A DNA stretch of 64,000 nucleotides from Bacillota bacterium. Its GTDB lineage: Bacteria > Bacillota > Clostridia > Oscillospirales > Oscillospiraceae. Every line of letters starts with the position of its first letter. The stretch's first letter is position 1. This document shows, in pieces, positions 1-62,470 of this stretch. The position numbers were made by a program, and so were the translations under genes. The notes beneath the pieces are model-generated. The model saw only the letters and a list, made by a program, of their open reading frames with translations, was not told where the DNA came from and searched no databases. The stretch is taken from NCBI GenBank assembly GCA_029225225.1, contig JAQXWB010000065.1:253-64252 (forward strand). The letters run 5' to 3'.

Positions 1-286
1 CGCACCGGTCTCGCAATGACAGATGAGGTAGCCTCTCCGTGTCATTGCGAGGAGCGAAGCGACGTGGCAATCTCGTGCAGGAACTACCGAGTGCGTACAA
101 ACCTATAACCGGAGATTGCCACGACCAGTGTGCGCACTGGTCTCGCAATGACAGATAGGGGTAGCCTTTCCATGTCATTGCGAGGAGCGCAGCGACGTGG
201 CAATCTCGTGCAGGAACTACCAAGTGCGTACAAACCTACAACCTGAGATTGCCACGACCAGTGTGCGCACTGGTCTCGCAATGACA
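1..286. repeat. Repeat locus R1: two and a fraction tandem 133-bp A-type units
   Basis: Module key used for all loci. A1 = GTCATTGCGAGGAGCGmAGCGACGTGGCAATCT. A2 = GTCATTGCGAGACCrGTGCGCACACTGGTCGTGGCAATCT. K = TTTGTACGCnnTnGGTAGTTCCTGCAC. B = GTAGGGGCGGCTATCAGCCGCCC. C = GTAGGGCGGGGACATGTCCCCGCC. H = GTGAATA/TATTCAC heptamer arrays. R1 is [A1-Krev-A2rev] starting at 41 and 174, with a partial A2rev at 1-20. Confidence 0.9.
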
Positions 287-341
287 ATTAGAGCGTGCGT
301 TTCATTCAAGATTCACTATCCCCCCACAAAACGGAGAAACT

Positions 342-797
342 ATGATTCGAATTGCAACCATTTCCGACAGAAACCTGTTAAAAACCATGTTTACCGAGTT
401 TTATGCTTCCGACGCTGTGATGCATACGATTCCGCAGGCGTATCACGAAACGGCGTTGGACGAGCTGTTTTCGGCATCCTCCCGTCAAAGAGCGTATGTG
501 CTTGAGGACGGCGAAACACCCGTGGGCTACGCGCTGATTTCCGAAAAATTCTCCCATGAGGCGGGCGGCTTGGAGCTTTGGGTGGAGGAGCTGTACCTCC
601 GCGAAGCCGCGCGCGGGAAGGGCTGCGGCAGCGCGTTTTTCCGTTTCTTGCTCGAAACCGCACAAAAAGAGGGCATCGCCCGCGTGCGTCTTGAGGTCGA
701 GCCGGAAAATACCCGCGCCGCCGCGCTTTACGTAAAGCTGGGCTTCCTGCCCTTACCCTACAACCAAATGGCGTGGACGCCGGAGGGAGCCATATGA
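342..797 (+). CDS. GNAT-family N-acetyltransferase
   Basis: 151-aa track ORF. GNAT-like core (ELYLREAARGKGCGSAFF ... ALYVKLGF). GGAG upstream of the ATG. Its TGA overlaps the next gene's ATG (ATGA at 794-797). Confidence 0.75.
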   Translation: MIRIATISDRNLLKTMFTEFYASDAVMHTIPQAYHETALDELFSASSRQRAYVLEDGETPVGYALISEKFSHEAGGLELWVEELYLREAARGKGCGSAFFRFLLETAQKEGIARVRLEVEPENTRAAALYVKLGFLPLPYNQMAWTPEGAI

Positions 798-1915
798 TCT
801 ATTTGGATAACGCCGCTACGACCCGCCCCTGCGCGGAGGCGGTTGAGGCGATCACAAAAACTTTGACGACCGATTGGGGCAACCCGAGCGCGCAATACCG
901 CTTCGGCATCGACGCGGCGCGGCTGCTGCGGAACGCAAGGCAGTCCGTCGCGGAGGCGCTCGGCGCGGAGACGGATCGCGTGTTTTTTACCTCCGGCGGC
1001 ACGGAGGCGGACAACTGGTCGATTTTTTCCTCTGCCGAACGCCTCGGCAAGCGCGGGAAGCACATCGTCACTACCGCCGTGGAGCATCACGCCGTCCTGC
1101 ACCCGATGCAAAAGTTGGAGGAGCGCGGCTTTGAGGTCACTTATTTGCAGCCGGATGCCCTCGGGCGCGTCAGTGTGGAGAGCCTGCAAGCGGCGCTGCG
1201 TCCGGATACGATCCTTGTGAGCGTCATGATGGTGAATAACGAATCGGGCGCGGTCATGCCCATTGAGGCCATGGCGAAGCTGACGCATCGGCTCTGTCTG
1301 AACGCGCTGTTCCATACCGACGCGGTGCAGGGCTTTTTCAAAGTGCCGTTTCGGGCGCGGACGCTCGGCGCGGATCTGATCTCCGTCTCGGGGCATAAGG
1401 TGCACGCGGGCAAGGGCGTCGGGGCGCTGTATATGGCAAAAAATCTGCCGCCGTTCATCCACGGAGGCGGGCAGGAGGGCGGTCTGCGCAGCGGTACGGA
1501 GAATCTGCCGATGATCGCGGGCTTCGGCGCCGCCTGCAAAGCGCAGCTTCCGACGCGGCTTGCCGCCATTTCGGAGCAGACAAGGCTGAAGAGGCTGCTG
1601 CAAGCGCTGCTTTCCGAGATCGACGGCGTGACCCTCCTCGGCGCGCAGGAGGCGCCGCATATCGTCAATTTGGCGGTGGTTGGGCTGCGTTCACAGGGAT
1701 TGCTCAATGCCTTGCAGGAAAACGGCTTCTGCGTGTCGGCAGGCTCCGCTTGCAGCAAGGGACACCGCAGCCACGTCTTAGAGGCTATGGGTGTCGCGCC
1801 GCAGCTGATCGACGGCTCGATCCGTGTCTCCCTGTCAAGCGAAACAACCGAAGAGGAGGTGCGCGCCTTCGCGGCAGCCCTTCCGCAGATCATCCACTCC
1901 CTTGGAAGACGGTGA
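794..1915 (+). CDS. cysteine desulfurase, NifS/IscS-like class V PLP enzyme
   Basis: N-terminus MIYLDNAATTRP, PLP-lysine motif SVSGHKVHAGKG, catalytic Cys loop SAGSACS. Start moved from the track's 773 to ATG 794. Confidence 0.85.
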   Translation: MIYLDNAATTRPCAEAVEAITKTLTTDWGNPSAQYRFGIDAARLLRNARQSVAEALGAETDRVFFTSGGTEADNWSIFSSAERLGKRGKHIVTTAVEHHAVLHPMQKLEERGFEVTYLQPDALGRVSVESLQAALRPDTILVSVMMVNNESGAVMPIEAMAKLTHRLCLNALFHTDAVQGFFKVPFRARTLGADLISVSGHKVHAGKGVGALYMAKNLPPFIHGGGQEGGLRSGTENLPMIAGFGAACKAQLPTRLAAISEQTRLKRLLQALLSEIDGVTLLGAQEAPHIVNLAVVGLRSQGLLNALQENGFCVSAGSACSKGHRSHVLEAMGVAPQLIDGSIRVSLSSETTEEEVRAFAAALPQIIHSLGRR

Positions 1916-1923
1916 AAAAATGA

Positions 1924-2118
1924 CTGTAGGGGGGACATGTCCCCGCAGGTGTAGGAACCACCGAGTGCGTACAGATTTGTTTCTACGTACCGGCGGGAGC
2001 CGCGCTGTAGGGGCGGCTATCAGCCGCCCGCTTGCAGGAACTACCGACTGCGTACAAACCTGTTCGCCTGTTTCTTCTGCCGCTTCGCGGACGGCGGGAA
2101 CATGTCCCCGCCCTGCAG
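1924..2118. repeat. Repeat locus R2 (C - Krev - B - Krev - Crev)
   Basis: CTGTAGGGGGGACATGTCCCCGC ... CTGTAGGGGCGGCTATCAGCCGCCC ... GGCGGGAACATGTCCCCGCCCTGCAG. Lies between convergent genes. Confidence 0.85.
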
Positions 2119-2148
2119 AGTGTCAGGGGAGTGGGTTCCTTGACAAAA

Positions 2149-3055: not shown

Positions 3056-3140
3056 ACCATTTGCGCAAATATGTGCAATAATTTGGTTTGCTACTGCCGT
3101 TTCGGCTGTTGAGCATATTTTTACAGGAGGTGTACACGAG

Positions 3141-3275
3141 ATGCTGCGTACCTATCAGCCCAGAAAGCGCCATCGCGCTAAGGTTCATGGTTTCCGCAAG
3201 AGAATGGCTACCGCCAACGGCCGCAAGGTCCTTGCCCGCCGTCGTGCTAAAGGCAGAGCTGTCCTGTCCGCCTAA
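3141..3275 (+). CDS. rpmH: 50S ribosomal protein L34
   Basis: 44-aa ORF below the track cutoff, read by hand: [50 protein letters not shown] lies about 10 nt upstream. Confidence 0.95.
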
Positions 3276-3360
3276 GGAACCGTGACCGCACCATACTGTT
3301 TGAATGTCATCAGGGGCGAACGGAGCGATCTGTTCGCCTTCTTTGTATTGGAGGAAACGC

Positions 3361-3699
3361 ATGGTCGTTTCGCTGAAAGAGAACGCCGCCTTCCGCCGCC
3401 TGTATTACCGCGGCGCAAACGCGGGCAACCGCTATCTTGTCATCTATTGCCGCCGCAACGGTCTGAAGGTCAGCCGTATGGGCCTGACGGTCAGCACCAA
3501 GCTCGGGCACGCGGTCGTGCGCAATCGGGTCAGACGCCGTCTGCGCGAAATTGTCCGCCTGCATGAGGACAAGCTCCTGTCGGGCTATGATTTCGTGATC
3601 GTTGCGCGTTCCGCAGCAGTCGAGGCGGAGTTTTCCGCGCTGACCAAGGCGTTCCTGTCGCTGACCGACAAGCTCGGTATGCAGAAGAAGCTACCCTGA
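3361..3699 (+). CDS. rnpA: ribonuclease P protein component
   Basis: Basic RnpA motif GLTVSTKLGHAVVRNRVRRRLRE. Directly downstream of rpmH. Start set to ATG 3361 after GGAGGAA (track ORF begins 3304). Confidence 0.85.
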   Translation: MVVSLKENAAFRRLYYRGANAGNRYLVIYCRRNGLKVSRMGLTVSTKLGHAVVRNRVRRRLREIVRLHEDKLLSGYDFVIVARSAAVEAEFSALTKAFLSLTDKLGMQKKLP

Positions 3700-3988
3700 T
3701 TGCCGGTGCGCACACTACCCGCAATACCCGCAAAGGGCGCGCCACAGCCGTAGGGCTTCTTTGTCGCCGACGGCTGTGCAGGGGGGTATGCCGCATCCGT
3801 AGCGCTCGTTTCTCGCGAACGACAGCGCAGTGGCTGGAGCAAACCCAAAATATAGGTTTGTATGCACCTGTCTGTGCCTGCACGAGATTGCCACGTCGCT
3901 GCGCTCCTCGCAATGACAAGGAAGAAAGTACCTGTGAGTCAATTTAGCTGTGCGCTATTCACCATTCACGAAACAGTCATTCACCCTT
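3698..3988. repeat. Repeat locus R3 (A2-derived + D module, A1rev, H)
   Basis: GATTGCCGGTGCGCACACTACCCGCAA...CGCTCGTTTCTCGCGAACG is shared with 35210-35300. Followed by AGATTGCCACGTCGCTGCGCTCCTCGCAATGACA and then CTATTCACCATTCAC. The locus starts within the rnpA stop codon. Confidence 0.85.
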
Positions 3989-4013
3989 AGCCTTAAAAAG
4001 AGGTGTGCGTTTT

Positions 4014-4226
4014 ATGAAAAAAATCCTGCTTGCGCTCATCCGCTTTTACCGCAAATTTATCTCCCCCGCATTTCCCGGGAAATGCCGCTTTATTCCGACC
4101 TGTTCGGAATACGGTTTGGAGGCCATTGAGAAATACGGCGCGGCAAAGGGCGGCTGGCTGACGTTCAAACGGTTATTACGGTGCAACCCCTTCAATCACG
4201 GCGATTTTTACGACCCCGTGCCGTGA
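4014..4226 (+). CDS. yidD: membrane protein insertion efficiency factor YidD
   Basis: FYRKFISP...[19 protein letters not shown] hallmark. ATG 4014 is preceded by AGAGGTG (track start 4005 is a GTG). Confidence 0.85.
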
Positions 4227-4280
4227 CCGTCCACCCGCCGCGTTCTGCGGCAGCTACCCCAACCCTTTTGGAGAGTAACG

Positions 4281-5450
4281 ATGTTCAATATTCCCTTTAT
4301 CCAGATCCCCTTCGGTTATGTGCTGGAGTTCTTCTACAACTTCTTCAGCAACTACGGCATCGCTCTGATTCTCTTCTCACTGGCGGTCAAGCTGATTCTT
4401 CTGCCGATGAGCGCCAAGAGCAAAAAGAGCATGATGAAAACCACCCGCCTCCAGCCGATGGTCAAGCAGATCGAGCTTGCCTGCGGCGACGATAAGGCAA
4501 AATACCAGCAGGAGGTGCAGAAGCTCTATAAAGAGGAAGGCGCCAGCATGACCGGCGGCTGCATCTGGGCGTTCATCCCCCTGCTCATTCTCATTCCGCT
4601 GTATAATGTCATTCGCGAGCCGCTGGAATACCTGCTTCACCTGAGCAGTGAGCAGATTGCTGCCGTCAAGGAGGCGCTTGCGGCAATCGAGGGCGTATCT
4701 GCGGACAAGCTCGATGTCTACTGGCAGTACCGCGCCGCGAGCAACGCGGCCGTGCTTCCCGCAGGTGTCGAAGTGCTGAATTTCTTCTTCTGCGGCATTG
4801 ACCTCGGCTTGAAGCCGAGCTGGAAGGTTTGGAAGATGCGCTCATGGGCAGAGATCGGCGGCTTTATCATCCCGCTTGCTTCCGGCGGTCTGAACTACCT
4901 GTCCATGTTCATCAGTCAGAAGATGAACGCCACCGTCGTCCGCGACGAGAACGGCGAGAAGGATGAGGCTGCGGCAAAGGCGGCTTCCACCGGCAAGGTG
5001 ATGAATCTGCTCATGCCGCTGATGTCCGTGTGGTTCGGCTTTATCATGCCGCTCGGTATCTCCATTTACTGGATCGCGCAGAGTATTTTCGGCATCGTGC
5101 AGGACTATTTCCTGACGAAGCATTACCGCAAGGTCTATGACGCCGAGGACGCCATAAAGCGCGAAAAAGCCGCCCAGCGCGCCGCCGAGGAGGCGGAAAA
5201 GGAGCGCATCCGCGCCGCCAAACGCGCTGCGAATCCCGACGGCATCACCGAAAACACCAGCAAAAAGAAGCAGCAGCTCCGCGACAAACAGACCCGTGAG
5301 GCTGCCGCAAAGGATTATGAGGCGAAAAAGCGCGCCGCGCAGGGTCTTGCGCCCGAGGAGTCGGCGGAGCTTTTGGGCGGTGAAAAGGATCGCCCCTATG
5401 CGCGCGGCAGGGCTTACCAGCCTGACCGCTATCGCTCTGACGAAGAATAA
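4281..5450 (+). CDS. yidC: YidC/Oxa1-family membrane insertase with long basic C-terminal tail
   Basis: Multi-TM core. Conserved position after rnpA/yidD. About 110-aa K/R/E-rich tail. GGAGAG RBS. Confidence 0.9.
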   Translation: MFNIPFIQIPFGYVLEFFYNFFSNYGIALILFSLAVKLILLPMSAKSKKSMMKTTRLQPMVKQIELACGDDKAKYQQEVQKLYKEEGASMTGGCIWAFIPLLILIPLYNVIREPLEYLLHLSSEQIAAVKEALAAIEGVSADKLDVYWQYRAASNAAVLPAGVEVLNFFFCGIDLGLKPSWKVWKMRSWAEIGGFIIPLASGGLNYLSMFISQKMNATVVRDENGEKDEAAAKAASTGKVMNLLMPLMSVWFGFIMPLGISIYWIAQSIFGIVQDYFLTKHYRKVYDAEDAIKREKAAQRAAEEAEKERIRAAKRAANPDGITENTSKKKQQLRDKQTREAAAKDYEAKKRAAQGLAPEESAELLGGEKDRPYARGRAYQPDRYRSDEE

Positions 5451-5459
5451 GGAGTTATC

Positions 5460-6413
5460 ATGGAAAAATATATAGTCACGACAGGCAAGACGATTGAGCT
5501 TGCCATCGAGGCGGCGCTGGCGCAGCTGAAACTGGACAGAGACAGCGTTTCCGTCGAGGTACTCAAGAACGCGCGTTCCGGCTTCCTCGGCATCGGCTCG
5601 TCTCCCGCAGAGGTCAAGGTGACCTACGAGGTGCCCGACGAGGACACCGCGCCCAAGACGGCGCTCTCCTCCGCCTCGCGTTCGAAGCCGAAGGAGCGCC
5701 CCGAGATTCCCGTTACCACCGGCGTGATCTCCCGCCCCGGAAAGAAGCCTGAGCCGGAGCAGAGACCCGCGAAGAAGCAGCCCGAGCGCAAGCCCGAGAG
5801 GAAAGCAGAGCAGCGTCCGGAAAAGAAAGTCGAGCCGCGGCCCGAAAAGAAGCCCGAGCGTAAGCAGGAGAAGAAAGCCGAGCGCAAGCCGGAGGCGCAG
5901 CCGAAGCCCGTGGAGGAGCCGAAGCCTGCCCGTACCTATGCTCCCGCAGAGCCGGGCAGCGTAGAGGAGAAGATCGAAAGCTTCCTCAAGGGGCTGCTTG
6001 AGCATATGGGCTCCGACGCCGTGCCGCACGCCTACAAGCTCGATGAAGAAAGCTATCGCGCCGATCTGGTCGGCGGCGACGCAGGTCTTCTGATCGGCAG
6101 ACGCGGCGACACCCTCGACGCCATCCAATATCTGACCGGCTACGCCATCAACCGCGACCGTGAAAAGCGCCTGCGCATCAGTGTAGATGCCGGCGACTAC
6201 CGCCTCAAGCGCGAGGATTCCCTGCGCCAGCTTGCCAATAAGATGGCAGCCAAAGCGGTCAAATACCGCCGCAACTTCACGCTCGAGCCGATGAACGCTT
6301 ACGAGCGGCACATCATCCACGCAGCCCTGCAGGATTACCCCGAGGTTACGACCTTCTCCACCGGCACGGAGCCGCACCGCCGCATCGTCGTTGCCTACGC
6401 AAAAGAGAAATAA
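5460..6413 (+). CDS. jag: RNA-binding protein Jag/KhpB (Jag_N-KH-R3H)
   Basis: Jag_N start MEKYIVTTGKTIELAIEAAL, a PEKK-rich linker, and a C-terminal KH/R3H region (YERHIIHAAL). Follows yidC, as is typical. Confidence 0.85.
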   Translation: MEKYIVTTGKTIELAIEAALAQLKLDRDSVSVEVLKNARSGFLGIGSSPAEVKVTYEVPDEDTAPKTALSSASRSKPKERPEIPVTTGVISRPGKKPEPEQRPAKKQPERKPERKAEQRPEKKVEPRPEKKPERKQEKKAERKPEAQPKPVEEPKPARTYAPAEPGSVEEKIESFLKGLLEHMGSDAVPHAYKLDEESYRADLVGGDAGLLIGRRGDTLDAIQYLTGYAINRDREKRLRISVDAGDYRLKREDSLRQLANKMAAKAVKYRRNFTLEPMNAYERHIIHAALQDYPEVTTFSTGTEPHRRIVVAYAKEK

Positions 6414-6557: not shown

Positions 6558-7622
6558 ATGCTGCAACAAACGCTTTCCGCGCATCGGCGGGCGCTGCACC
6601 GCATTGCGGAGACGGACCGCGAGCTTCCGCGCACCGCCGCTTACCTGAAAAACACTTTACAGCAGTTGCCTTGCACGGTCTTTTCTCCGGTCGGAGACGC
6701 CGTTTGCGCTTATTTTGACTTCGGCAAGCCCGAGACCGTCGCCCTGCGCAGCGATATGGACGCCCTGCCGATCTGTGAGCAGACGGGACTGCCCTTTGCC
6801 TCGGAAAACGCCGAGACGATGCACGCCTGCGGGCATGACGGGCATATGGCAATCCTGCTGACGCTGGCGGGGCTGCTCCCGTCCCTGCCGACCGCGCGGA
6901 ATGTTTTACTCGTTTTCGAGCCTGCCGAGGAGACGACGGGTGGGGCAAAGCCCATCTGCGAGACGGGGCTGTTTGAAAGATACCATGTCACACGTGTGTT
7001 CGGGCTGCATCTGTGGCCGGAGCTGCCGAAAAATATCGTCGCCTCCCGTGCGGGCGGGATGATGGCGCGTTCCTGTGAGCTGACGGTTACGGTCGAGGGC
7101 AGGAGCGTGCATCTTGCCAAGTGGAGAGAGGGAGCGGATGCGCTTGCCGCCGCTGTGGAATTTATTACGCGTGCCTATGGTCTTGCGGAGAATCTGCCCT
7201 GCCTGCTCCGCTTTGGGCGCATGGAGAGCGGCGAGGCGCGCAACAGTGTGAGTAAGCGCTCCGTTTTGCAAGGTTCTCTGCGCTGCTTTGACGATATACT
7301 GTTTTTGAAGCTTTGGAACGGATTGCAAGCGCTTGCGGACGAGCTTTCCGAGAAAAGCGGCTGCAAATTCGTCCTCTCGCGCTCTGAAGGCTACCCGCCC
7401 GTGACGAACGACGCGGCGCTGCTTACGGAGGTGCGGGAACGCTTTCCCGTGGAGGAGACTGCGCCGACCTTCATCACGGAGGATTTTTCCGAATATCAAA
7501 AGCACGCGCCCGGGGTGTTCTTCCTCCTCGGCACCGGCGGCGAACCGCTGCACTCCCCGCGCTTCGATTTCGACGAAGCCGTCCTGCAAACAGGCGTCTC
7601 ATTGTTCACCGCCCTCCTATAG
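6558..7622 (+). CDS. M20-family amidohydrolase (peptidase M20D-like)
   Basis: Metal-site motif MHACGHDGH and overall M20D-like layout. AAGGAGA RBS. The last codons and stop lie inside repeat locus R4. Confidence 0.8.
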   Translation: MLQQTLSAHRRALHRIAETDRELPRTAAYLKNTLQQLPCTVFSPVGDAVCAYFDFGKPETVALRSDMDALPICEQTGLPFASENAETMHACGHDGHMAILLTLAGLLPSLPTARNVLLVFEPAEETTGGAKPICETGLFERYHVTRVFGLHLWPELPKNIVASRAGGMMARSCELTVTVEGRSVHLAKWREGADALAAAVEFITRAYGLAENLPCLLRFGRMESGEARNSVSKRSVLQGSLRCFDDILFLKLWNGLQALADELSEKSGCKFVLSRSEGYPPVTNDAALLTEVRERFPVEETAPTFITEDFSEYQKHAPGVFFLLGTGGEPLHSPRFDFDEAVLQTGVSLFTALL

Positions 7623-7768
7623 CCGCCCCTACGAGAACAGGTGGGAGTCGCGCTGTAGGGGCGGCTATCAGCCGCCAGCCGGTACGTAAAAACAAGCTTG
7701 TACACAGTCGGTAGTTCCTGCACGCGGCTTATGACTGTCCCTGCCCTACAATAGTCATTCACCCATAG
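7609..7768. repeat. Repeat locus R4 (Brev - B - K - degenerate Crev - H fragment)
   Basis: ...CTATAGCCGCCCCTACGAGAACAG...CTGTAGGGGCGGCTATCAGCCGCC...CGGTAGTTCCTGCACG... It covers the last codons and stop of the M20 gene. Confidence 0.85.
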
Positions 7769-10035: not shown

Positions 10036-10264
10036 CTGTAGGCCGCGGACATGTCCCCGCCGGTGTAGGAACTACCAACCGCGTACAAGCTCGTTTCTAT
10101 GTACCGGCGGGCGGCTGATAGCTGCCCCTACGAGAACAGTCGGATGTCGCGCTGTAGGGGCGGCTATCAGCCGCCCGCGTGCAGGTACTACCGGCTCATA
10201 CAGATTTGCTCGTCTGTGCCGTCTGCCGCTTACGCGGTCTTAGGGGATAGGTCTCCGCCCTGCA
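10036..10264. repeat. Repeat locus R5 (C - Krev - Brev - B - Krev - degenerate Crev)
   Basis: CTGTAGGCCGCGGACATGTCCCCGCC...GGGCGGCTGATAGCTGCCCCTACGAGAACAG...CTGTAGGGGCGGCTATCAGCCGCCC... Confidence 0.85.
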
Positions 10265-14166: not shown

Positions 14167-14235
14167 ACGGCTGCGCAGACACCGCCTGTGTAGGAGTGCT
14201 CCGCTCGGATTAAAAATGTGAAGGCGTCCCTCCCA

Positions 14236-14454
14236 TGTCATTGCGAGCCGAGGAACGAGGCGTGGCAATCTCGTGCAGGAACTACCGAGTGCGTACAAAT
14301 CTACAGCCTGAGATTGCCACAGCCGGTGTGCGCACTGGCTTCGCAACGACAAAAGGGGTGGTTCCTCCGTGTCATTGCGAGGAGCGCAGCGACGTGGCAA
14401 TCTTGTGCAGGAAATATCCGGTGAGTACTAACTCGTTTCGCCGTACCGTCTGCC
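14236..14454. repeat. Repeat locus R6 (A1 variant - Krev - A2rev - A1 - degenerate Krev)
   Basis: TGTCATTGCGAGCCGAGGAACGAGGCGTGGCAATCTCGTGCAGGAACTACCGAGTGCGTACAAATC... then GTCATTGCGAGGAGCGCAGCGACGTGGCAATCT. Confidence 0.85.
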
Positions 14455-17503: not shown

Positions 17504-17938
17504 TCAGGGCAGCTTGTCCAGCAGGGCGTCATAGAGCTGCGCCGTCTCGTCAGACAGCGCGTCGGCATAGCCCTCCAGCTCTGCCATATAGCCGTGGAAG
17601 GAAACCGTGTTTTGCGTCTGCCACGCATTTTGCGCCAGTGCCAAAAGCTCGGCAGCCTTTGCGCTGCGTACCGTCGTGTCCAGCTCGGCGCGGAGCTGCT
17701 CGTTTTCGCTGTGCGCCGTCTCCAGCTCGTCTTCCATCTCTTCGATGTTTTCTCGCGCGCCGCTGTTTGCCGCATTCAAATCGTCCTGCATGGTATGTAC
17801 CTTCACCAGCAGCGACAGCGCTACCAGCAAAAAGGCGACCGCAAACATAATGCCTAAGTACTCCAACATAGCGCGCTTCTTTCGGGGGGAGAGCGGCGCC
17901 TCCTCGGTTTCCTTCATCTTTTGCACTTGTTCAGACAT
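17504..17938 (-). CDS. membrane-anchored coiled-coil protein, function unknown
   Basis: 144 aa with one TM (YLGIMFAVAFLLVALSLLV) followed by heptad-like acidic repeats. Its ATG overlaps the parB stop by 8 nt. Confidence 0.55.
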   Translation of the reverse strand: MSEQVQKMKETEEAPLSPRKKRAMLEYLGIMFAVAFLLVALSLLVKVHTMQDDLNAANSGARENIEEMEDELETAHSENEQLRAELDTTVRSAKAAELLALAQNAWQTQNTVSFHGYMAELEGYADALSDETAQLYDALLDKLP

Positions 17939-18812
17939 TTGCTTCCTCCGTGCGCGGCAATGCTAACAGCGCGTCATACAGGCGCTGTAGATCGTCCTCG
18001 CCGTAAAATTCCAACTCAAAACGCCCCTTGCGCTTGCCGCTGACGATTTTGACGCGCCGCCCAAGCTGCTTTGTCAGCATCTTTTCGCACTCGCCGACAT
18101 AATCGACAGCCGGTGCGGGCTTTGCTTTTTGCGGCTTCTCCTCTGCCGCCATGCGCTTGCACATGGCTTCCGCCTGCCGCACGGACAGCCGCAGCGCGAT
18201 GATTTTCTGCGCTGCCGCCTTTTGCAGACGTTCGTTTGGCAGGGACAGTACTGCGCGGGCGTGCCCTGCGGAGAGAGTTCCGTTCTCTACCAGCTCGCGC
18301 ACCTCGTCTGGCAGTGCGAGCAGACGCAGCGCATTTGTGACCGCCGGGCGTGATTTTCCCACCCGCGCCGCCGCCTGCTCCTGCGTCAGACCGTATTCCT
18401 CCATCAAAACGCGGTAGCCCTCCGCCTCTTCCATCGGGTTGAGATCCTGCCGCTGCAAGTTTTCAATGAGCGCAAGCTCCATCACCGTTCTGTCATCCGC
18501 TTCCAGAACGACGACCGGCACTTCCTCCAAACCTGCCATTCGCGCCGCTCGCCAACGGCGTTCACCGGCGATGATCTGATAAAAGCCGCCGTCCAGCGCG
18601 CGCACCGCAAGAGGCTGCAAGATGCCATGCTCCGCGATGGAGTCGGCAAGCGCTTGCAGCTCCGCCTCGTCAAAGCTCCTGCGGGGCTGGTTCGGGTTCG
18701 GCTCGACCTTTTGCAGGGGCAGCGATGTAATTGTATCCGATGCGGGCGCAGCGGAAAAGTCGTCGATCAGTGCGCCGAGACCTTTCCCAAGCCCCCGTTG
18801 CTTTGTTGCCAT
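17931..18812 (-). CDS. parB: chromosome partitioning protein ParB/Spo0J
   Basis: GLGKGLGALI N-terminus, ParB box IIAGERRWRAA, HTH. AGGAGGAA RBS. Confidence 0.9.
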   Translation of the reverse strand: MATKQRGLGKGLGALIDDFSAAPASDTITSLPLQKVEPNPNQPRRSFDEAELQALADSIAEHGILQPLAVRALDGGFYQIIAGERRWRAARMAGLEEVPVVVLEADDRTVMELALIENLQRQDLNPMEEAEGYRVLMEEYGLTQEQAAARVGKSRPAVTNALRLLALPDEVRELVENGTLSAGHARAVLSLPNERLQKAAAQKIIALRLSVRQAEAMCKRMAAEEKPQKAKPAPAVDYVGECEKMLTKQLGRRVKIVSGKRKGRFELEFYGEDDLQRLYDALLALPRTEEANV

Positions 18813-18823
18813 TTTGGTTCCTC

Positions 18824-19597
18824 CTATCGCGCGACCGCCGCGCCGTCCCGCTTCAGAATCTCCTCCGCTACGCTGAGGTATGCGACCGCGCCGCGTGAGC
18901 TTTTGTCATAAGCGGTTACCGGCAGACCGTGACTCGGCGCTTCGGCAAGCCGCACATTCCGCGGAATGACTGCGGCAAACACCTTGCCGGGGAAGTGGCG
19001 GCGCACCTCCTGCGCAACCTGATTTGAAAAATTCGTCCGTCCGTCAAACATCGTCAGCAGCACGCCGAAAATCTCTAACTTCGGGTTCAATCGCCGCTTG
19101 ATGGCGCGAAGGGTAGACATTAAATCGGATAAACCCTCAAGGGCGTAATACTCGCACTGCACGGGGATCAGAATGCTGTCTGCCGCGCACAGCGCGTTGA
19201 GCGTAAGCAGCTCGAGTGACGGCGGACAGTCAATAAAAATATAATCGTAGGCATAGCGCAGCGCGTCGAGCTGTGTTTTCAGCCGATATTCGCGTTTTTC
19301 GAGAGAAATCAATTCCACGGATGCGCCTGCCAGTGCTGCGGTCGAGGGAATGACATCTCCGAAATCCGTCTTGACGACGCATTTTTCAGGCATAACGCCG
19401 CCGATCACCATCTCGTAAGCGCCGTTTGTGACCTGACGCTTTTCAACGCCGAGTCCCGAGGTTGCGTTTGCCTGCGGGTCAAAATCGCACAGCAACACTC
19501 GCGCGCCCGAGGCGGCAAGCGCTGCGGTCAGGTTAACGGCGCTTGTCGTTTTCCCGACACCGCCTTTTTGGTTGACGACCGCGATGATCTTGCCCAT
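18824..19597 (-). CDS. parA: chromosome partitioning ATPase ParA/Soj
   Basis: Deviant Walker A NQKGGVGKTT. Immediately upstream of parB. AAGGAGG RBS. Confidence 0.9.
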   Translation of the reverse strand: MGKIIAVVNQKGGVGKTTSAVNLTAALAASGARVLLCDFDPQANATSGLGVEKRQVTNGAYEMVIGGVMPEKCVVKTDFGDVIPSTAALAGASVELISLEKREYRLKTQLDALRYAYDYIFIDCPPSLELLTLNALCAADSILIPVQCEYYALEGLSDLMSTLRAIKRRLNPKLEIFGVLLTMFDGRTNFSNQVAQEVRRHFPGKVFAAVIPRNVRLAEAPSHGLPVTAYDKSSRGAVAYLSVAEEILKRDGAAVAR

Positions 19598-20382: not shown

Positions 20383-20550
20383 CTTGGGAACCTCTGAACA
20401 AATCGGTTGCGGCGCTCACCGGAGCTTTTACCGCAACTCTTCGGTTCGAAAATCTTGAAATACAAAAAGTATTCCTCCGGTTTTCCAACCACAATTTGCG
20501 GCAAAATTCCTCGCCGACCGCTCTTGCAGATTGATTCAGAGCTTCCCTGG
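20383..20550 (+). repeat. F2 element copy a (about 168-bp long imperfect hairpin/MITE-like)
   Basis: About 85% identical by eye to 35693-35858, in the same orientation. Termini are GGGAAnCTCTGAA ... TTCAGAGCTTCCC. Central palindrome GAAATACAAAAAGTATTCC. Confidence 0.8.
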
Positions 20551-20558: not shown

Positions 20559-20742
20559 TGTAGGGCAGGGACATGTTCAAGCCGGCCGCGTAAGCGGCAG
20601 ACAGTGCGAATGACCAAGTTTGTACGCAATTGGTAGTTCCTGCACGCGCCGAGGACATGTCCCCCCCTACATGGAGTTTTTGACAATGCTGTGAGATTCC
20701 CTATACTGTCATTGCTAGCCGAGGAGCGAGGCGTGGCAATCT
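20559..20742. repeat. Repeat locus R7 (degenerate C - K - Crev - A1 variant)
   Basis: TGTAGGGCAGGGACATGTTC...TTTGTACGCAATTGGTAGTTCCTGCACGCGCCGAGGACATGTCCCCCCCTACA...GTCATTGCTAGCCGAGGAGCGAGGCGTGGCAATCT. Confidence 0.8.
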
Positions 20743-39410: not shown

Positions 39411-39433
39411 GCAGCAGTGCGCCGAACGGTGCC

Positions 39434-39551: not shown

Positions 39552-39610
39552 GCCGTTTGAATGTGTTGGGCGTATCATATGCAAGAAAATCAATTCTCAT
39601 GGAGGATTTT

Positions 39611-43081: not shown

Positions 43082-43202
43082 GATTTGTACGCAGGAGCCG
43101 AAACTGCGGCTGTAGGGGCGGCTATCAGCCGCCCGTCGGTACAGCGGAACAGGTTTGTACACGGTCGGTAGTTCCTGCACGCAGGCGGCTGATAGCCGAC
43201 CC
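43082..43202. repeat. Repeat locus R13 (K-like - B - K - Brev)
   Basis: GATTTGTACGCAGG...CTGTAGGGGCGGCTATCAGCCGCCC...GGTTTGTACACGGTCGGTAGTTCCTGCACGCAGGCGGCTGATAGCCG. Confidence 0.85.
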
Positions 43203-47577: not shown

Positions 47578-47826
47578 GCAGTGAATAGAGAATAGTGAAT
47601 GGTGAATAGGTCGCCGCAGCGGCTTTTTCCGTTGCTTACAGCTTATTACGCGCTTGGTAGTTTCCGCCGACAGATTTTCAATCCGCGCGGAGCGCTCCGA
47701 CACTGTTCACTGTTCACTATTCATCATTCACTATTCACTGAAGCCCTGCAAAGGCGCGTCAGGGATGCCGCGCGCTACAGATTCTAAAAAGGTGCCTGCA
47801 CGCGAGCGGCTGATAGCAGCCCCTAC
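47578..47826. repeat. Repeat locus R14 (inverted H arrays, then Brev)
   Basis: GCAGTGAATAGAGAATAGTGAATGGTGAATAGG ... CACTGTTCACTGTTCACTATTCATCATTCACTATTCACTG ... GCGGCTGATAGCAGCCCCTAC. Confidence 0.8.
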
Positions 47827-47850
47827 GGCGCGAAGCGGTATATGGAAAAA

Positions 47851-50022: not shown

Positions 50023-50058
50023 TATCGTTTCATCCTTTCAGATCTGTTTTAGGAAAAG

Positions 50059-50197
50059 GGGGTAGCCTCTTTGTCATTGCGAGACCGGTGCGCACACCGG
50101 TCGTGGCAATCTGTGGCTGTAGATTTGTAAGCGCTTGGTAGTGCCGGCACGAGATTGCCGCGTCGCTGCGCTCCTCGCAATGACATGGGAGGGTAGC
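50059..50197. repeat. Repeat locus R15 (A2 - degenerate K - A1rev) between cooC and acsB
   Basis: TGTCATTGCGAGACCGGTGCGCACACCGGTCGTGGCAATCT...GAGATTGCCGCGTCGCTGCGCTCCTCGCAATGACA. Confidence 0.9.
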
Positions 50198-50222
50198 TTG
50201 CCGTGACAATCCAAAACGCAAA

Positions 50223-53208: not shown

Positions 53209-53379
53209 GTAGTGAATAGAAAGCGGAAAATCGTTCACTGCTTGGAGTTTGTATATGCTTTGTAGGGCGGGGACATGCCCCCGCCGTCCGCGAAGCGGCA
53301 GACGGTACAGACGAACGAGTTTGTACGTACTTGGTAGTTCCTACACGCGGCGGGGACATGTCCCCGCCCTACAGAATAG
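53209..53379. repeat. Repeat locus R16 (H - C - K - Crev)
   Basis: GTAGTGAATAG...TGTAGGGCGGGGACATGCCCCCGCCGTCCGCGAAGCGGCAGACGGTACAGACG...TTTGTACGTACTTGGTAGTTCCTACACGCGGCGGGGACATGTCCCCGCCCTACAG. Confidence 0.9.
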
Positions 53380-54656: not shown

Positions 54657-54693
54657 AAAGATGCCAAAGGAACGGACTCTCGGCATCTTTTTT
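54657..54693 (+). terminator. intrinsic terminator after M20 hydrolase 2
   Basis: AAAGATGCC-loop-GGCATCTTT followed by TTT. Confidence 0.6.
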
Positions 54694-54704
54694 GTATGCA
54701 CTCG

Positions 54705-55064
54705 ATAATTCCTGTACCGGCACGCCGTGCCGCGCGAGCGACAAGAGGTAAAAGTAAACAGGGTTGAACACAGTTGGTAGCTCCTGCACGAGATTGCCAC
54801 GGCGCAAGCGCCTCGCAATGACACAGAGGGCAGCCTTTTCGTGTCATTGCGAGGAGCGCAGCGACGTGGCAATCTCCGGTTGCTAACTTGTACGCAGTTG
54901 GTCGTTCCTGCACAAGATTGCCACGGCGCAAGCGCCTCGCAATGACACGGAGGGCAGCCTTTTCGTGTCATTGCGAGGAGCGCAGCGACGCGGCAATCTC
55001 CGGTTCCTAACTTGTACGCAGTCAGTCGTTCCTGCACCGGCGGGGACATGTCCCCACCCTACAG
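54705..55064. repeat. Repeat locus R17 (K, two tandem [A3rev-A1-K] units of 124 bp, Crev)
   Basis: AGATTGCCACGGCGCAAGCGCCTCGCAATGACA at 54791 and 54915, each followed by TGTCATTGCGAGGAGCGCAGCGACGyGGCAATCT. Ends with GGCGGGGACATGTCCCCACCCTACAG. Confidence 0.9.
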
Positions 55065-55076
55065 AGGAGATATAGG

Positions 55077-57483: not shown

Positions 57484-57528
57484 TGGAAACCTTCCTTTTT
57501 GGATGAAGTAAATGGTGCGCTTTGTGAT

Positions 57529-57904
57529 CTGTAGTACGGGGATATGTCCCCGCCGTCCGCGAATCGGCAGACGGTACAGACGCACAGGTTTGTACGCGGT
57601 TGGTAGTTCCTGCACGGGATTGCCGCGTCGCTGCGCTCCTCGCAATGACATAATTGGCTACCCTATCTGTCATTGCGAAACCAGTGCGCACACTGGTCGT
57701 GGCAATCTTGTGCCGTTGGTAGTATGCAGTCGGTAGTTCCTGCACGGGATTGCCGCGTCGCTGCGCTCCTCGCAATGACATAATAGGCTACCCTATCTGT
57801 CATTGCGAGACCAGTGCGCACACTGGTCGTGGCAATCTTGTGCCGTTGGGTAGTATGCAGTCGGTAGTTCCTTCACCGGCTTAGGACATGTCCCCACCCT
57901 ACAG
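57529..57904. repeat. Repeat locus R18 (C, K, two tandem [A1rev-A2-K] units of 130-131 bp, Crev)
   Basis: GGTAGTTCC junctions at 57602, 57732 and 57863. Flanked by CTGTAGTACGGGGATATGTCCCCGCC and GGACATGTCCCCACCCTACAG. Confidence 0.9.
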
Positions 57905-57949
57905 AGTCAGTATAACATATTTTGCCGTCGAAGTCTGTTAAGAAAATAT

Positions 57950-60767: not shown

Positions 60768-60813
60768 AAGTAAAATAAAGATTGTGTGAAGAAGTGCCCG
60801 CGGAGCGCTCCTT

Positions 60814-61052
60814 TGTCATTGCGAGACCGGTGCGCACACTGGTCGTGGCAATCTTCGGTTGCAGATTTATATGCAGTTGGTGATTCCTGCACGAGATTGC
60901 CACGTCGCTTCGCTCCTCGCAATGACACGGAGAGGCAACCCTTATTTGCCATTGCGAGACCGGTGCGCACACTGGTTGCGGCAATCTTCGGTTGCAGGTT
61001 TGTATGCAGTTGCTAGTTTCTGCACCGGTGGGGACGTGTCCTAAGCCCTACA
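60814..61052. repeat. Repeat locus R20 (A2-K-A1rev, A2-K, degenerate Crev) in the chrA leader
   Basis: A2 copies at 60814 and 60947, a 133-bp period. Ends with GGGGACGTGTCCTAAGCCCTACA. Confidence 0.85.
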
Positions 61053-61082
61053 AGAGGTTTTGCGATTAAAGGAGGTCTTTTC

Positions 61083-61652
61083 ATGCCCCTGCGGGAGCGA
61101 GTGAAAAAGGCGCTGCGGCTGTTCTTGATTTTTCTCAAGATCGGCGCGTTTACCTTTGGCGGCGGCTACGCCATGATCCCGCTGATCGAGTATGAGACGG
61201 CGGAAAAGCGCAGCTTGATTGAAAAAGACGAGATCTCCGACATTGTTGCCATTGCCGAGTCCACCCCCGGGCCCATTGCTGTGAACTCCGCTACCTTCGT
61301 CGGCTGCCGCACGGCGGGCTTCCTCGGCGCGTTCGCCGCGACGGTCGGTGTGGTGCTGCCCTCATTTATCATCATTCTGCTGATTGCGTTTTTCCTGCGC
61401 CGCGTGATGGACTACCGTATCGTGCAGTACGCCTTTTTCGGTATCCGCGCGGGCGTGCTGGCGCTGATTGTCAAGGCGGTCGTCTCGTTTTGGAGACGCG
61501 CGGAGCATAACGGCTTCTCTTGGTGCGTGATGGTCGCGGCGTTTCTCTGGGCGGCGATCCTCGATTGGAGCGTCATTGCTCTGATCGCCCTGTGCGGTCT
61601 GGCGGGCTTTGTCTACTGCCTTGTGCAGCGAAGGCGGGGTGCGACGCAATGA
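61083..61652 (+). CDS. chrA: chromate transporter family protein (half-size, N)
   Basis: FLKIGAFTFGGGYAMIPLI CHR motif. AAGGAGG RBS. Confidence 0.8.
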   Translation: MPLRERVKKALRLFLIFLKIGAFTFGGGYAMIPLIEYETAEKRSLIEKDEISDIVAIAESTPGPIAVNSATFVGCRTAGFLGAFAATVGVVLPSFIIILLIAFFLRRVMDYRIVQYAFFGIRAGVLALIVKAVVSFWRRAEHNGFSWCVMVAAFLWAAILDWSVIALIALCGLAGFVYCLVQRRRGATQ

Positions 61653-62218
61653 TGTGCCTGCTCGAGCTGTTCTATACCTTTTTTAAAATCGGCCTGTTCA
61701 CCTTCGGCGGCGGCTACGCGATGCTGCCGCTCATTCAGGCCGAGGTCGTCGCCCACGGCTGGCTGACGGTAGAGGGTCTGGTCGATTTTGTCGCCGTCAG
61801 CGAATCCACGCCCGGCCCCTTCGCCATCAACATCTCAACCTATGTCGGCGCGGAGACGGCGGGCATACTCGGTGCGCTTGCGGCGACAATGGGCGTCGTG
61901 CTGCCCTCGTTCCTCGTTATTTTAATTGTCGCAAAGTTTTATGTGAAATTCAAAAACAGCCGCGCGGTGAGCGGCGTGATGTACGGCTTGCGTCCGGCGG
62001 TCGTCGGACTGATGGCGTGCGCCCTGTGGGGAATGCTCCCGACGGTGTTTTTCCACAGCGGAGCGATCTCGTGGCGCGCGGTGATTCAACCCGAATTTTT
62101 GTGTACCGCCGGGATTTTTACCGTCGCCGTGATTGCGGCGCTGAAAAAGGTCAGCCCGATTTTGATCATCGTTTGCTCTGCCGCCCTCGGCATCGTCTGC
62201 GGACTGCTCTTTTTATGA
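61649..62218 (+). CDS. chrA: chromate transporter family protein (half-size, C)
   Basis: FFKIGLFTFGGGYAMLPLI CHR motif. ATGA overlap with the preceding half. Confidence 0.8.
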   Translation: MMCLLELFYTFFKIGLFTFGGGYAMLPLIQAEVVAHGWLTVEGLVDFVAVSESTPGPFAINISTYVGAETAGILGALAATMGVVLPSFLVILIVAKFYVKFKNSRAVSGVMYGLRPAVVGLMACALWGMLPTVFFHSGAISWRAVIQPEFLCTAGIFTVAVIAALKKVSPILIIVCSAALGIVCGLLFL

Positions 62219-62249
62219 GAGCAGCGGCTTGACGAAGGCTGAATGATAA

Positions 62250-62470
62250 TGTAGAACTCAGGACATGTTCCTGCCGACCGCGCAAGGGGAAGACGAGCAA
62301 ATCTGAATGCAGCCGGTAGTTCCTGCAAGAGGGCGGCTGATAGCTGCCCCTACAGCGCGACTTCCGCCTGTTCTCGTAGGGGCGGCTATCAGCTGGCCGC
62401 CGGGATGTAGAAACAAGCTTATACGCAGCCGGTAGTTCCTGCACCGGCTTGGGACGTGTCCACGCCCTAC
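62250..62470. repeat. Repeat locus R21 (degenerate C - K - Brev - B - K - degenerate Crev) upstream of trkH
   Basis: TGTAGAACTCAGGACATGTTCCTGCC...CCGGTAGTTCCTGCAAGAGGGCGGCTGATAGCTGCCCCTACAG...GTAGGGGCGGCTATCAGCTGGCC...CCGGTAGTTCCTGCACCGGCTTGGGACGTGTCCACGCCCTAC. Confidence 0.85.

Follow-up and report, generated by a model that had tools for sequence, protein, structure and literature searches.

Repeat loci in the window

The window, by which we mean the whole 64,000-nucleotide stretch analyzed here, comes from a gut Faecousia sp. (Oscillospiraceae, Clostridia) whose nearest relatives are other Faecousia spp., in agreement with an earlier note, made from the sequence alone, that had called the host Clostridia-like. 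Self-BLAST and module annotation delimited 21 repeat loci with a total of approximately 4.6 kb (7.2% of the window), close to the approximately 21 loci, 4.8 kb and 7% that had been delimited by hand. The B, C, A and core modules described in that note were all found at their positions, in copy numbers far above shuffle expectation: at up to 3 mismatches, B was found 12 times, C 11 times and the core 20 times (0 expected), and GTCATTGCGAG is present 25 times, which corresponds to approximately 24 A modules (approximately 0 expected). More than 25 core copies had been claimed; a looser search of the window finds 28. GTAG is the top-ranking tetranucleotide 5' of GC-rich hairpins in the window and lies 5' of 23 of the named hairpins, which bears out the proposed GTAG-before-hairpin grammar; B and C are both GTAG hairpins as described, but further types exist besides them.

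On a rough gene map, the repeats account for 4.0 kb of the approximately 10.5 kb of non-coding sequence (approximately 38%) and are found in 19 of the 37 intergenic gaps of at least 40 bp, including most gaps of at least 190 bp. The statement that they occupy most intergenic space was therefore too strong; moreover, one locus (33140-33461) lies inside the mutL reading frame. As the earlier note had it, the window carries no mobility gene of its own: phmmer detected no RAYT, and Pfam scans of approximately 60 of its ORFs detected no transposase or integrase.

Several loci consist of A-type hairpins and the core. Two tandem A-type units (A, core, inverted A, repeated), defined by module annotation and sequence, lie at 1-291 on the minus strand, where the locus is cut by the window start; its modules are A(+) at 41, core(-) at 75, A(-) at 114, A(+) at 174, core(-) at 208 and A(-) at 247. 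A partial unit with a degenerate core and an inverted A is found upstream of yidD (3832-3925, plus strand), tandem units in the order A, core, A, A, core at 14196-14454 (minus strand), and a single unit (A, core, inverted A) between acsB and a cooC-like gene (50053-50200, plus strand). In the miaB/mutS gap, a plus-strand unit with A at 28067, the core at 28116 and a degenerate inverted A is followed by (TTCACTA)n (28025-28245). Two A-type units at 60811-61057 (plus strand) end in a degenerate inverted C.

Other loci are built on GTAG hairpins. The canonical 111-nt unit, with a GTAG-C hairpin, the mini-hairpin h, spacer, core and an inverted C ending in CTAC, is found at 53255-53377 (plus strand). 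A composite of two GTAG units occupies a convergent-gene gap on the minus strand at 1926-2120 (C, core(-), B(+) at 2007, core(-), h(-), inverted C at 2093), and another convergent-gene gap holds two tail-to-tail 110-nt units on the same strand at 10038-10264. The first consists of C(+), core(-) and B(-) at 10109, and a linker of 22 nt separates it from the second, which consists of B(+) at 10154, core(-), h(-) and a degenerate inverted C. Two further tail-to-tail units, also separated by a linker of 22 nt, are found at 62245-62470 (plus strand); one has a degenerate C(+), h, the core and B(-) at 62331, and the other has B(+) at 62376, the core and an inverted C. At 7619-7760 (plus strand), a partial inverted B provides the TAG at which the upstream gene ends. 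A linker of 22 nt separates it from B(+) at 7655, after which come the core at 7698 and a degenerate inverted C. Shorter plus-strand loci include B(+), core and a degenerate inverted B at 43109-43202, and, at 23932-23985, h preceded by a single GTAG hairpin that belongs to yet another type (GTAGGGCACGGCGACTCGGCGTGCC). At 20560-20742 (plus strand), a GTAG unit of 111 nt (20560-20670), whose C-like hairpins are degenerate, precedes a solo A at 20708. The minus-strand locus 47579-47833 carries (TTCACTA)n tracts together with two inverted hairpins, one of the D type at 47754 and, after GGTGCCTGCAC, a B at 47804. A type-2 doublet (39431-39555, plus strand) separates the T-box leader from the start codon of ileS and is composed of B(+), a t2 spacer ending in GTTCCTACAC and an inverted B; the compared locus L003 carries a C-type unit at this position.

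The two kinds of hairpin are also combined in the following cases, all on the plus strand except the insert in mutL, to which no strand is assigned. A C unit expanded by two A-A-core repeats is found at 57525-57906 (C(+), h, core, twice inverted A, A and core, then a degenerate inverted C), a core-A-A-core array ending in an inverted C hairpin in a convergent-gene gap at 54690-55068, and, downstream of miaA (35104-35367), a composite element in which a t2 motif and an inverted A are followed by the core, at 35311, and by an inverted C in degenerate form. The array in the mutS/mutL gap (30869-31239) has outer C-type hairpins and two A-core-A units inside; the outer C hairpins are kept in the compared loci L002, L003 and L005, and the number of inner units varies. 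The insert at 33140-33461, identified from Pfam domains, protein alignment with relatives and the modules, lies in frame in the mutL linker and encodes approximately residues 381-488 of MutL. It consists of B'(+), an inverted A, a complete minus-oriented C unit of 110 nt (33241-33350), and then a second B'(+) and a second inverted A, and alignment of the protein with its relatives revealed that one unit within mutL has opposite orientation between species.

Anatomy of the basic unit

The basic doublet of approximately 110 nt is composed of a GTAG-tagged hairpin, an asymmetric conserved spacer (h and the core) and an inverted hairpin ending in CTAC. Its length is nearly constant (110-113 nt) and its GTAG and CTAC ends are 97% conserved. 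The terminal hairpins B, B', C, D, E, F and G are interchangeable; B, C, D, E, F and G, all GTAG-tagged, swap at either end of one 110-nt backbone. A-type hairpins do not carry GTAG and form tandem arrays with the core. Pairing is maintained by compensatory changes concentrated in both terminal hairpins: 92.5% of cells were paired overall, a value reached in 0 of 500 shuffles. Sequence identity is higher in the spacer (h 87%, core 82%) than in the hairpins (67% and 54%), a conserved CCTGCAC lies just 5' of the right-hand inverted hairpin, and what is conserved in the core is its primary sequence, not structure. No classical DDE-type target-site duplications or terminal inverted repeats were found at the units.

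The units could also be structured-RNA genes or cis-elements, such as small RNAs, leaders or terminators, that are under selection for RNA function and are not mobile DNA. Several of the pairs predicted on the core strand are of the G-U type, the spacer folds slightly better on this strand (Wilcoxon p 0.004), the pair 48-76 shows GC to AU changes and many elements lie just past stop codons. However, orientation is unlinked to the flanking genes (approximately 5 loci are sense, 4 antisense and the rest in convergent or divergent gaps), there is no Rfam family match, T-tracts and consistent promoters are absent, and the spacer alone folds barely better than shuffled sequence (mean z -0.86 and -0.44). 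Taking into consideration also that a unit in mutL is inverted between species, we regard an RNA function as very unlikely to explain these elements.

Spread and turnover across genomes

The core and C modules are limited to one small clade, the B module was found in contigs of 30-68% GC and A modules are much more widespread than the GTAG hairpins. B doublets of other organisms have short variable spacers without CCTGCAC. Within the clade, orthologous sites differ between species in hairpin type, tandem unit number and even orientation; variable unit number and hairpin type per site are predicted by the BIME model (PMC3333891). The comparison of orthologous regions called for in the earlier note revealed turnover of content, and no case in which a GTAG unit was cleanly present in one genome and absent from another. 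All orthologous intergenic sites examined are occupied across clade members, down to 82% nucleotide identity, and no repeat indels were found among three conspecific strains at three repeat loci within 6.2 kb, other than one of 10 nt that is inside an unrelated 165-bp MITE. The elements favor convergent and co-directional gaps, a preference that is typical of REPs, as are the use of the TAG of the tag as a stop codon and the presence of REPs inside repair genes (PMC3733652).

The constant occupancy of these sites, the absence of gain or loss among conspecific strains and the conservation of the core as primary sequence rather than structure could indicate fixed DNA signals that are selected by the host and inherited in place, with the core serving, for example, as a site for a nucleoid- or replication-linked protein, comparable to the IHF site in E. 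coli BIME-1. Unit orientation leans the same way (13 vs 5 toward the positive-GC-skew strand), but this skew is not significant (p ~0.10). Site content does differ between species in hairpin type, unit number and orientation, so these sequences are not simply inherited, and the family is absent from the same loci in other genera. We therefore consider such a signal unlikely, and it would in any case be compatible with an origin by RAYT-driven spread.

A RAYT gene in close relatives

The single-copy Y1 gene predicted to lie beside the modules was found in both sister-species and conspecific assemblies. It occupies one syntenic site in the sister-species MAGs JBJDYD, JBJFGB, JAEDOK and JBJDYF and in two conspecific assemblies, of which JBJDYE is 99.6% identical to the window over 6.2 kb and ERZ10407399 is 98.6% identical. 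In every case, alternating B/B' hairpins lie immediately 5' of the gene; the array reads B'(+), B'(-), B(+), B'(-), B(+). The gene overlaps the next gene by 4 bp and contains two B hairpins in frame. Moreover, among 120 loci obtained by scanning metagenome contigs for the exact B module, approximately 9 have a RayT-like Y1/HUH ORF beside the B hairpins.

The RAYT is a 167-aa HUH/Y1 protein with REP-associated tyrosine transposase as best family match and 4ER8 as best structure match. The RayT-like proteins match Y1_Tnp in Pfam, and their sole NCBIfam match above noise is REP_Tyr_transpos, at 63-67 bits, which is below the equivalog cut-off of 80 bits; a match to IS200 was limited to one protein (21.7 bits). 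E. coli TnpA_REP (4ER8) is the sole match in PDB. The HUH motif, the catalytic Tyr and an Asn at Y+4, which is the RAYT-type residue (PMC6006769), are invariant. The protein differs from IS200 enzymes in having Asn instead of Gln at Y+4, in scoring far better against the RAYT model than against the IS200 model and in its single-copy, syntenic gene.

The earlier reading of the repeats as a REP/REPIN/BIME system with a RAYT is supported, with the link shown for B/B' only: searches for a RAYT that contains C, D, E, F or G hairpins, or has them on its flanks, found none. No RAYT was found either near A modules, which have no GTAG and are spread over very diverse contigs. The RAYT system could accordingly comprise B/B' only, with the core units and A-type arrays forming a separate miniature-element family that sits beside the REPs and is moved by another enzyme or spread by recombination, gene conversion or tandem duplication. 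Confinement of the core and C to one small clade while B ranges over contigs of 30-68% GC would fit this division, as would the wide spread of A and the spacers without CCTGCAC in other organisms. The spacers of the B doublets beside the RAYT, however, end in GTGCCTGCAC, the same as the core; the swapping of six GTAG hairpin types on one backbone and the lack of DDE-type hallmarks also speak against two families, and we find the division rather improbable.

Comparison with known systems

The E. coli REP/BIME elements with TnpA_REP (RayT), or REPtron (PMC3333891, PMC3479197, PMC8266576), share with the Faecousia system GTAG 5' of a GC-rich hairpin, alternating REP orientation with linkers of defined types, tandem unit number per locus that varies among relatives, and a single-copy HUH/Y1 gene flanked by its own REPs; TnpA_REP is also the closest match of the Faecousia protein by family and solved structure. 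By contrast, the Faecousia system is found in Bacillota (Clostridia), not gamma-Proteobacteria, its RAYT is only approximately 24% identical to E. coli RayT and below the NCBIfam cut-off, and its stems are almost perfectly paired, while a mismatch in the stem is required by the E. coli enzyme. Further differences are at least 7 hairpin types on one backbone and two REPs within the transposase reading frame.

Inverted REP doublets of approximately 100 nt, extragenic many-copy elements and vertical inheritance of the RAYT at a fixed syntenic site are shared with the REPIN-RAYT systems of Pseudomonas and its relatives (PMC3116915, PMC5581495, bioRxiv 10.1101/2021.07.10.451892). Unlike in REPINs, the two Faecousia arms are often of different types and therefore cannot pair with each other, arrays are interwoven with A-type hairpins without GTAG, and the spacer is more conserved than the arms, the reverse of classical REPINs (bioRxiv 10.1101/2021.07.10.451892). 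At the level of described features, the GTAG REP super-family of Di Nocera et al. 2013 (PMC3733652) is similar in its GTAG tag, 6-13 bp stems, short loops, head-head and tail-tail dimers, clusters, preference for convergent or co-directional gaps, stop codons formed by the TAG of the tag and in-frame REPs within DNA repair genes. With IS200/IS605-derived palindrome-associated elements (TnpA_IS200), the Faecousia elements share sub-terminal hairpins, the lack of target duplications and, as predicted from the protein sequence, Y1/HUH chemistry on single strands, but IS200 enzymes have Gln at Y+4 and are encoded by multi-copy genes.

Proposed mechanism and implications

Taken together, REP/BIME-type hairpins and a matching single-copy RAYT in close relatives identify a known kind of element, and these repeats are quite probably REP/BIME-class elements that belong, in the Faecousia lineage, to a REP-RAYT system, or REPtron. 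No earlier description of such elements was found for this lineage. RAYTs have been noted in Clostridia (PMC5581495), but no REP population is described there in PMC3733652 or PMC6006769, and the text of the survey of 24 families in 8 phyla mentions neither Firmicutes nor Clostridia (PMC3733652); the view that such systems are under-described in Clostridia agrees with this literature. Unusual features are the spacer conservation, the B hairpins in the RAYT frame and the mutL insert.

If it works like E. coli TnpA_REP, the HUH/Y1 enzyme of the lineage, encoded by a single-copy gene, would bind the GTAG-tagged hairpin on single-stranded DNA and would cut at nearby CT or CA dinucleotides, candidate sites being the CT just 5' of GTAG and the CCTGCAC 5' of the right-hand hairpin. 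Strand rejoining could then spread the elements, swap their hairpin types and let tandem arrays grow or shrink, and recombination at the shared core probably adds mosaic forms, including chimeras with A-type hairpins.

The RAYT carries inactivating lesions in two conspecific assemblies, and these lesions differ. The elements may therefore now be immobile in this species, which seems to be losing the enzyme. A pattern of loss followed by decay has been described for REPIN populations, and a decaying RAYT with static repeats in one species would match it. The elements of the window are therefore probably a static population now and may retain passive effects, such as serving as 3' hairpins of transcripts.

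Repeat modules and their position relative to genes

Counts against dinucleotide-preserving shuffles bore out the modules described from the sequence in the earlier note. At no more than 3 mismatches, the B module (GTAG-GGGCGGC-TATCA-GCCGCCC) has 12 matches in the window, as compared with 11 for the C module (GTAG-GGCGGGGAC-AT-GTCCCCGCC) and 20 for the 27-nt core, where 0 are expected for each; a looser search brings the core to 28 copies. The A-module motif GTCATTGCGAG occurs 25 times. Self-BLAST and module annotation delimited 21 repeat loci, which cover 7.2% of the window (about 4.6 kb), close to the hand estimate in the earlier note (about 21 loci, roughly 4.8 kb, about 7%). The statement that they occupy most intergenic space was somewhat overstated, since a rough gene map shows 19 of the 37 gaps of at least 40 bp to be occupied and about 38% of the non-coding bases to consist of repeats.

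GTAG is the top tetranucleotide found 5' of hairpins in the window, where it tags 23 named hairpins, and it is carried alike by hairpins of the B, B', C, D, E, F and G types. Consistent with REP elements, the repeats are mainly extragenic, high in copy number and sparse in divergent gaps (about 2 of 7 occupied, as against 4 of 5 convergent gaps), and the TAG stop codon of one upstream gene is supplied by a repeat element. The same positional habits, i.e., gap preference and use of TAG as a stop codon, have been described for GTAG REPs (PMC3733652). At the window loci, the orientation of the units showed no relation to the direction of the flanking genes. Of the units, 13 are oriented toward the strand of positive GC skew and 5 toward the other, a bias that is not significant (p ~0.10); as neither dnaA nor a DnaA-box cluster lies within the window, the replication origin could not be placed and the replichore could not be fixed, and this skew therefore stays suggestive. 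The window contains rpmH-rnpA-yidD-yidC-jag (3140-6413) and parB-parA (17931-19597), which are usually origin-proximal.

Heptamer tracts (TTCACTA/TTCACYR) and the motif AGTCATTCACCCTTAGCC adjoin the elements, often just 5' of ribosome-binding sites (28197-28245, 47579-47609, 47703-47750, 3960-4000, 7740-7765 and 35125-35150). A tRNA-derived origin of the repeats was rejected, as the window has no tRNA or tmRNA genes, and scans for intrinsic terminators and promoters inside the units gave no consistent matches. A sequence-based literature search on the repeats matched unrelated primers only.

Anatomy of the repeat unit and maintenance of its hairpins

In the window, as in five related genomes, the basic unit has a constant length of 110-113 nt. 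From 5' to 3', it consists of GTAG with a GC-rich hairpin, a mini-hairpin h (CCGC-GAAG/GTAA-GCGG), a short segment s, the core TTTGTACGCnnTnGGTAGTTCCTGCAC, 2-3 bases and an inverted hairpin ending in CTAC. Besides B and C, this one backbone carries terminal hairpins of the types B', D, D2, E, F and G, and the two ends of a unit are often of different types (e.g., E with B or C with D). Across 16 units, identity is 97% at the GTAG/CTAC ends, 87% in h, 82% in the core and 80% in the spacer, and drops below that of the spacer in the left (67%) and right (54%) hairpins. Pairing is nevertheless kept in these hairpins; 92.5% of cells are paired and 0 of 500 shuffles reached the observed paired fraction or covariation score. 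Compensatory changes are concentrated in the two terminal helices (helices 2 and 7, which account for 7 of the 9 pairs altered on both sides), and B and B' differ by a swap of C-G to A-T in the stem. The stems are thus kept by compensatory change across sub-families, as is characteristic of REPs.

The same modules also occur in other arrangements. A-type units, composed of A, 11 nt, the core and an inverted A, are arrayed in tandem, often with a C hairpin as the cap, and B modules are joined tail to tail into dimers through a conserved 22-nt linker. Type-2 doublets have another spacer (t2), which consists of the heptamer tracts and AGTCATTCACCCTTAGCC, yet has the 3' end GTTCCTRCAC. Inverted pairs of REPs, a unit of about 100 nt and tandem repetition are features of REPINs and BIMEs; the conserved, mutually pairing arms and variable spacer of strict REPINs were not found. 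With its heterologous arms and conserved spacer, the architecture resembles that of E. coli BIMEs more than that of strict REPINs.

Conserved units with paired stems could also represent structured RNAs, although this is unlikely; the units follow no orientation rule, their spacers fold hardly better than shuffled sequences (mean z -0.86 and -0.44), and Rfam matched no known RNA family other than the T-box, either at the gathering threshold over the whole window or at permissive E-values over 53-58.2 kb.

A REP-associated transposase is linked to the B and B' modules

In agreement with the earlier note, no RayT-like ORF (phmmer) and no transposase or integrase (Pfam, about 60 window ORFs) was found in the window. 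A scan of metagenome contigs for the exact B module yielded at least 120 loci. When the ORFs of all loci were compared with E. coli RayT by phmmer, RayT-like ORFs were found, among the matches listed, only in B-selected loci, and a tblastn search with two of these ORFs raised the number of B loci encoding them to about 9 among the matches listed. The RayT-like proteins match Pfam Y1_Tnp as well as the NCBIfam model for REP-associated tyrosine transposases (NF047646), the latter with E ~1e-17 and 63-67 bits, short of the 80-bit cut-off of the model. Among solved structures, only 4ER8, E. coli TnpA_REP, was matched. Residues H91, H93, Y152 and N156, representing the HUH motif, the catalytic Tyr and an Asn at Y+4, are invariant. 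A profile search identified 7,502 homologs at E <= 1e-10, three of which are named transposase [Faecousia sp.]; among the best 120 of these, the HUH pattern used is present in 115 and the Tyr...Asn pattern in 117. Asn rather than Gln at Y+4 distinguishes RAYTs from IS200 transposases (PMC6006769), and the proteins thus show the residues that define the enzyme of a REPtron. Membership in IS200/IS605 was rejected given this Asn, the IS200 model, which matches one protein only and at 21.7 bits, and the syntenic position of the gene with its overlapping neighbor.

Contigs encoding the RAYT were found in the MAGs of two of the related contigs used for comparison (JBJDYD for L001 and JBJFGB for L003) as well as in JAEDOK and JBJDYF. 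In six assemblies, the gene lies between a hutI-like amidohydrolase gene and a DUF362-Fer4 gene, with which it overlaps by 4 bp in most assemblies; each allele is recorded on one contig. Alternating B and B' hairpins are located 5' of the RAYT gene, and their spacers end in GTGCCTRCAC, the motif found at the 3' end of the core. B and B' lie within 250 nt upstream of the gene in loci L221, L219, L217 and L352-L359, and in locus L202 the gene is bracketed by an inverted B pair. RAYT loci also carry C/core/A composites like those in the window. The predicted REPtron arrangement, in which a RAYT gene is flanked by its own REPs, held for B and B' only, and in sister-species and conspecific MAGs rather than in the window itself. 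For C, a search with a chimeric query carrying C-encoded peptides returned no C-hairpin-specific RAYT among the matches listed (best 120), although such an enzyme may exist beyond these.

The E. coli enzyme (PMC3333891, PMC8266576) serves as a model here; by analogy, the RAYT would bind the GTAG-tagged hairpin on single-stranded DNA and would cut at CT or CA dinucleotides, with the choice made through GTAG, and strand exchange would come after cutting. In the window, CT is found directly 5' of GTAG in 13 of the 23 copies, and core-bearing units have CCTGCAC, with a CT as well as a CA, directly next to the right-hand hairpin. Recombination at the shared core would yield C/A chimeras.

Two REP hairpins are encoded in frame within the RAYT gene

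The RAYT gene itself contains two B/B' hairpins, in frame and inverted relative to each other, which flank the HUH motif (positions 1730-1752 and 1922-1944 of L221, within the RAYT ORF at 1616-2119; also in L129, L144, L153, L156, L217-L222 and L352-L359). The encoded peptides, VGAAISRP/VGADIIRP and GRLIAAPT/GRIISAPT, are inserted in the beta1-alphaA and beta3-alphaC loops and are present in at least 93 and at least 99, respectively, of the best 120 homologs, while the L103 and L202 types of RAYT are without them. Within the gene, the difference between B and B' is compensatory for the stem, yet changes the protein, which points to the hairpin, and not the peptide, as the target of selection. 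No published description of an in-frame REP pair in a RAYT was found.

Turnover between species and probable loss of the RAYT in the species of the window

The closest genomes, as judged by MutL relatives, are Faecousia sp. MAGs (Oscillospiraceae, Clostridia); nucleotide identity is 91-93% for contigs L001, L002 and L003 and about 82% for L005. Conspecific assemblies were found through the window Hfq and include JBJDYE010000010.1 (GCA_051867035.1), with 99.6% identity over 6.2 kb, and two more with 99.1% and 98.6%. Every orthologous intergenic site examined was occupied in all members of the clade, and the content of the sites varies. In the mutS-mutL array, the outer C hairpins are constant and the number of inner units changes between species; at the T-box/ileS site, the window and L001 have a B-t2-B doublet where L003 has a C unit and L005 a D-type doublet. 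In the window (39168-39586), the B-t2-B doublet lies inside a regulated 5' UTR, 3' of the T-box leader (39168-39386) and 5' of the ileS start codon. Variable tandem number and linker-based diversification are predicted by the model in which TnpA_REP cleaves and rejoins BIMEs (PMC3333891), and the turnover found here corresponds to this prediction. No clean insertion event was seen between species.

Repeats have also entered coding sequence. In the MutL linker, about 100 residues come from repeats read in frame (window 33140-33461; mutL 31996-34140), in the order B', A, a whole 110-nt C unit, B' and A, and MutL has 714 aa here versus about 615-650 aa in other genera. The inner C unit of mutL has the minus orientation in L001 as in the window and the plus orientation in L002-L005, with an open frame either way.

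Neither the core nor the C module occurred in 75 other Oscillospiraceae mutL loci or in 135 B-selected loci, and each had 0 matches in viral contigs. B modules occur in contigs of 30-68% GC, where they have short variable spacers.

No gain or loss of units was found among the three conspecific strains at three repeat loci in the 6.2 kb. The sole indel at these loci is 10 nt long and lies inside an unrelated 165-bp MITE. This miniature element, which has the terminal inverted repeats GGGAAnCTCTGAA...TTCAGAGCTTCCC, is present in the window at 20383-20545 and 35693-35856; the copy just 3' of hfq is missing in L001 and L003 (empty site CTGTAAGCGAAGGTCG) and present in most other strains sampled. 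A further stretch of the window, 24000-26400, has a low GC content (0.44-0.45) and is probably acquired DNA; a gene on its minus strand (24877-26352) encodes Schlafen/AlbA_2, HATPase_c_4 and MarR-like domains.

Two conspecific assemblies carry a damaged RAYT. In JBJDYE (L359:8001-8510, JBJDYE010000089.1), a TGA stop is located two codons before the catalytic Tyr and the B array upstream of the gene is degenerate, and in the other assembly (L358:3062-3538) HUH has become YIH, with Tyr in place of the first His, and the ORF is nine codons short. The RAYT ORFs of the sister species are intact (167 aa). From the two conspecific lesions and the constancy of units in three strains, we infer that the RAYT is being lost in the species of the window and that the elements are now static. 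The lesions may represent sequencing errors in the MAGs, although the two are independent.

A modules and possible roles of the conserved spacer

The A module is built from GTCATTGCGAG, a variable perfect hairpin and GTGGCAATC (e.g., 41-75 and 50073-50110 in the window), and is extremely widespread, being found in at least 120 viral contigs (including L223-L341) with a GC content of 32-66%. Its inner hairpin varies by compensatory substitution. The core and A parts may have a mover of their own: A modules lack GTAG, no RAYT was found near them in 119 viral loci, and no C-linked RAYT was present among the matches listed. It is also possible that the conserved core has a host-selected role, e.g., as a putative protein-binding site, which would be compatible with RAYT-driven spread.

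Beyond the anatomy of the elements, the maintenance of their hairpins, the link of B and B' to a RAYT and the turnover between species, all of which are observed, one could read the system as a composite element. A domesticated RAYT would spread a selected asymmetric spacer (h and core) as cargo, representing a putative protein-binding or strand-specific signal; the GTAG hairpins would be interchangeable adapters for the enzyme, and the in-frame REP pair, which many gut relatives of the RAYT gene share, could be a self-recognition circuit serving autoregulation or self-limitation. We consider this composite reading improbable. The defining features of GTAG REPs are present, those of REPtrons appear to be so for B and B', and the system is ordinary in kind, with three variant features, namely a conserved spacer with interchangeable hairpins, a REP pair in the RAYT frame and A-type arrays.

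Implications

RAYTs have been noted in Clostridia (PMC5581495), and a REP population in Firmicutes is not described in the REP surveys PMC3733652 and PMC6006769. Dense REP/REPIN-RAYT systems, reported from Proteobacteria and a few other phyla, now extend in range to abundant uncultured gut Clostridia, and in gut metagenomes the RAYT family behind this system numbers in the thousands (7,502 matches at E <= 1e-10). Related MAG contigs end at repeat loci, L001 at both ends (corresponding to window 31073 and 43115) and L002 at one (window 35791), and the elements thus fragment short-read assemblies of this lineage; such breakage matters for the binning and annotation of these genomes. The elements also reshape genes, as seen in the approximately 100 in-frame residues of the MutL linker and the unit in the ileS leader. 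Moreover, the intact RAYT in sister species versus the broken copies in the species of the window provides a clean natural comparison for asking whether REP populations freeze or decay.
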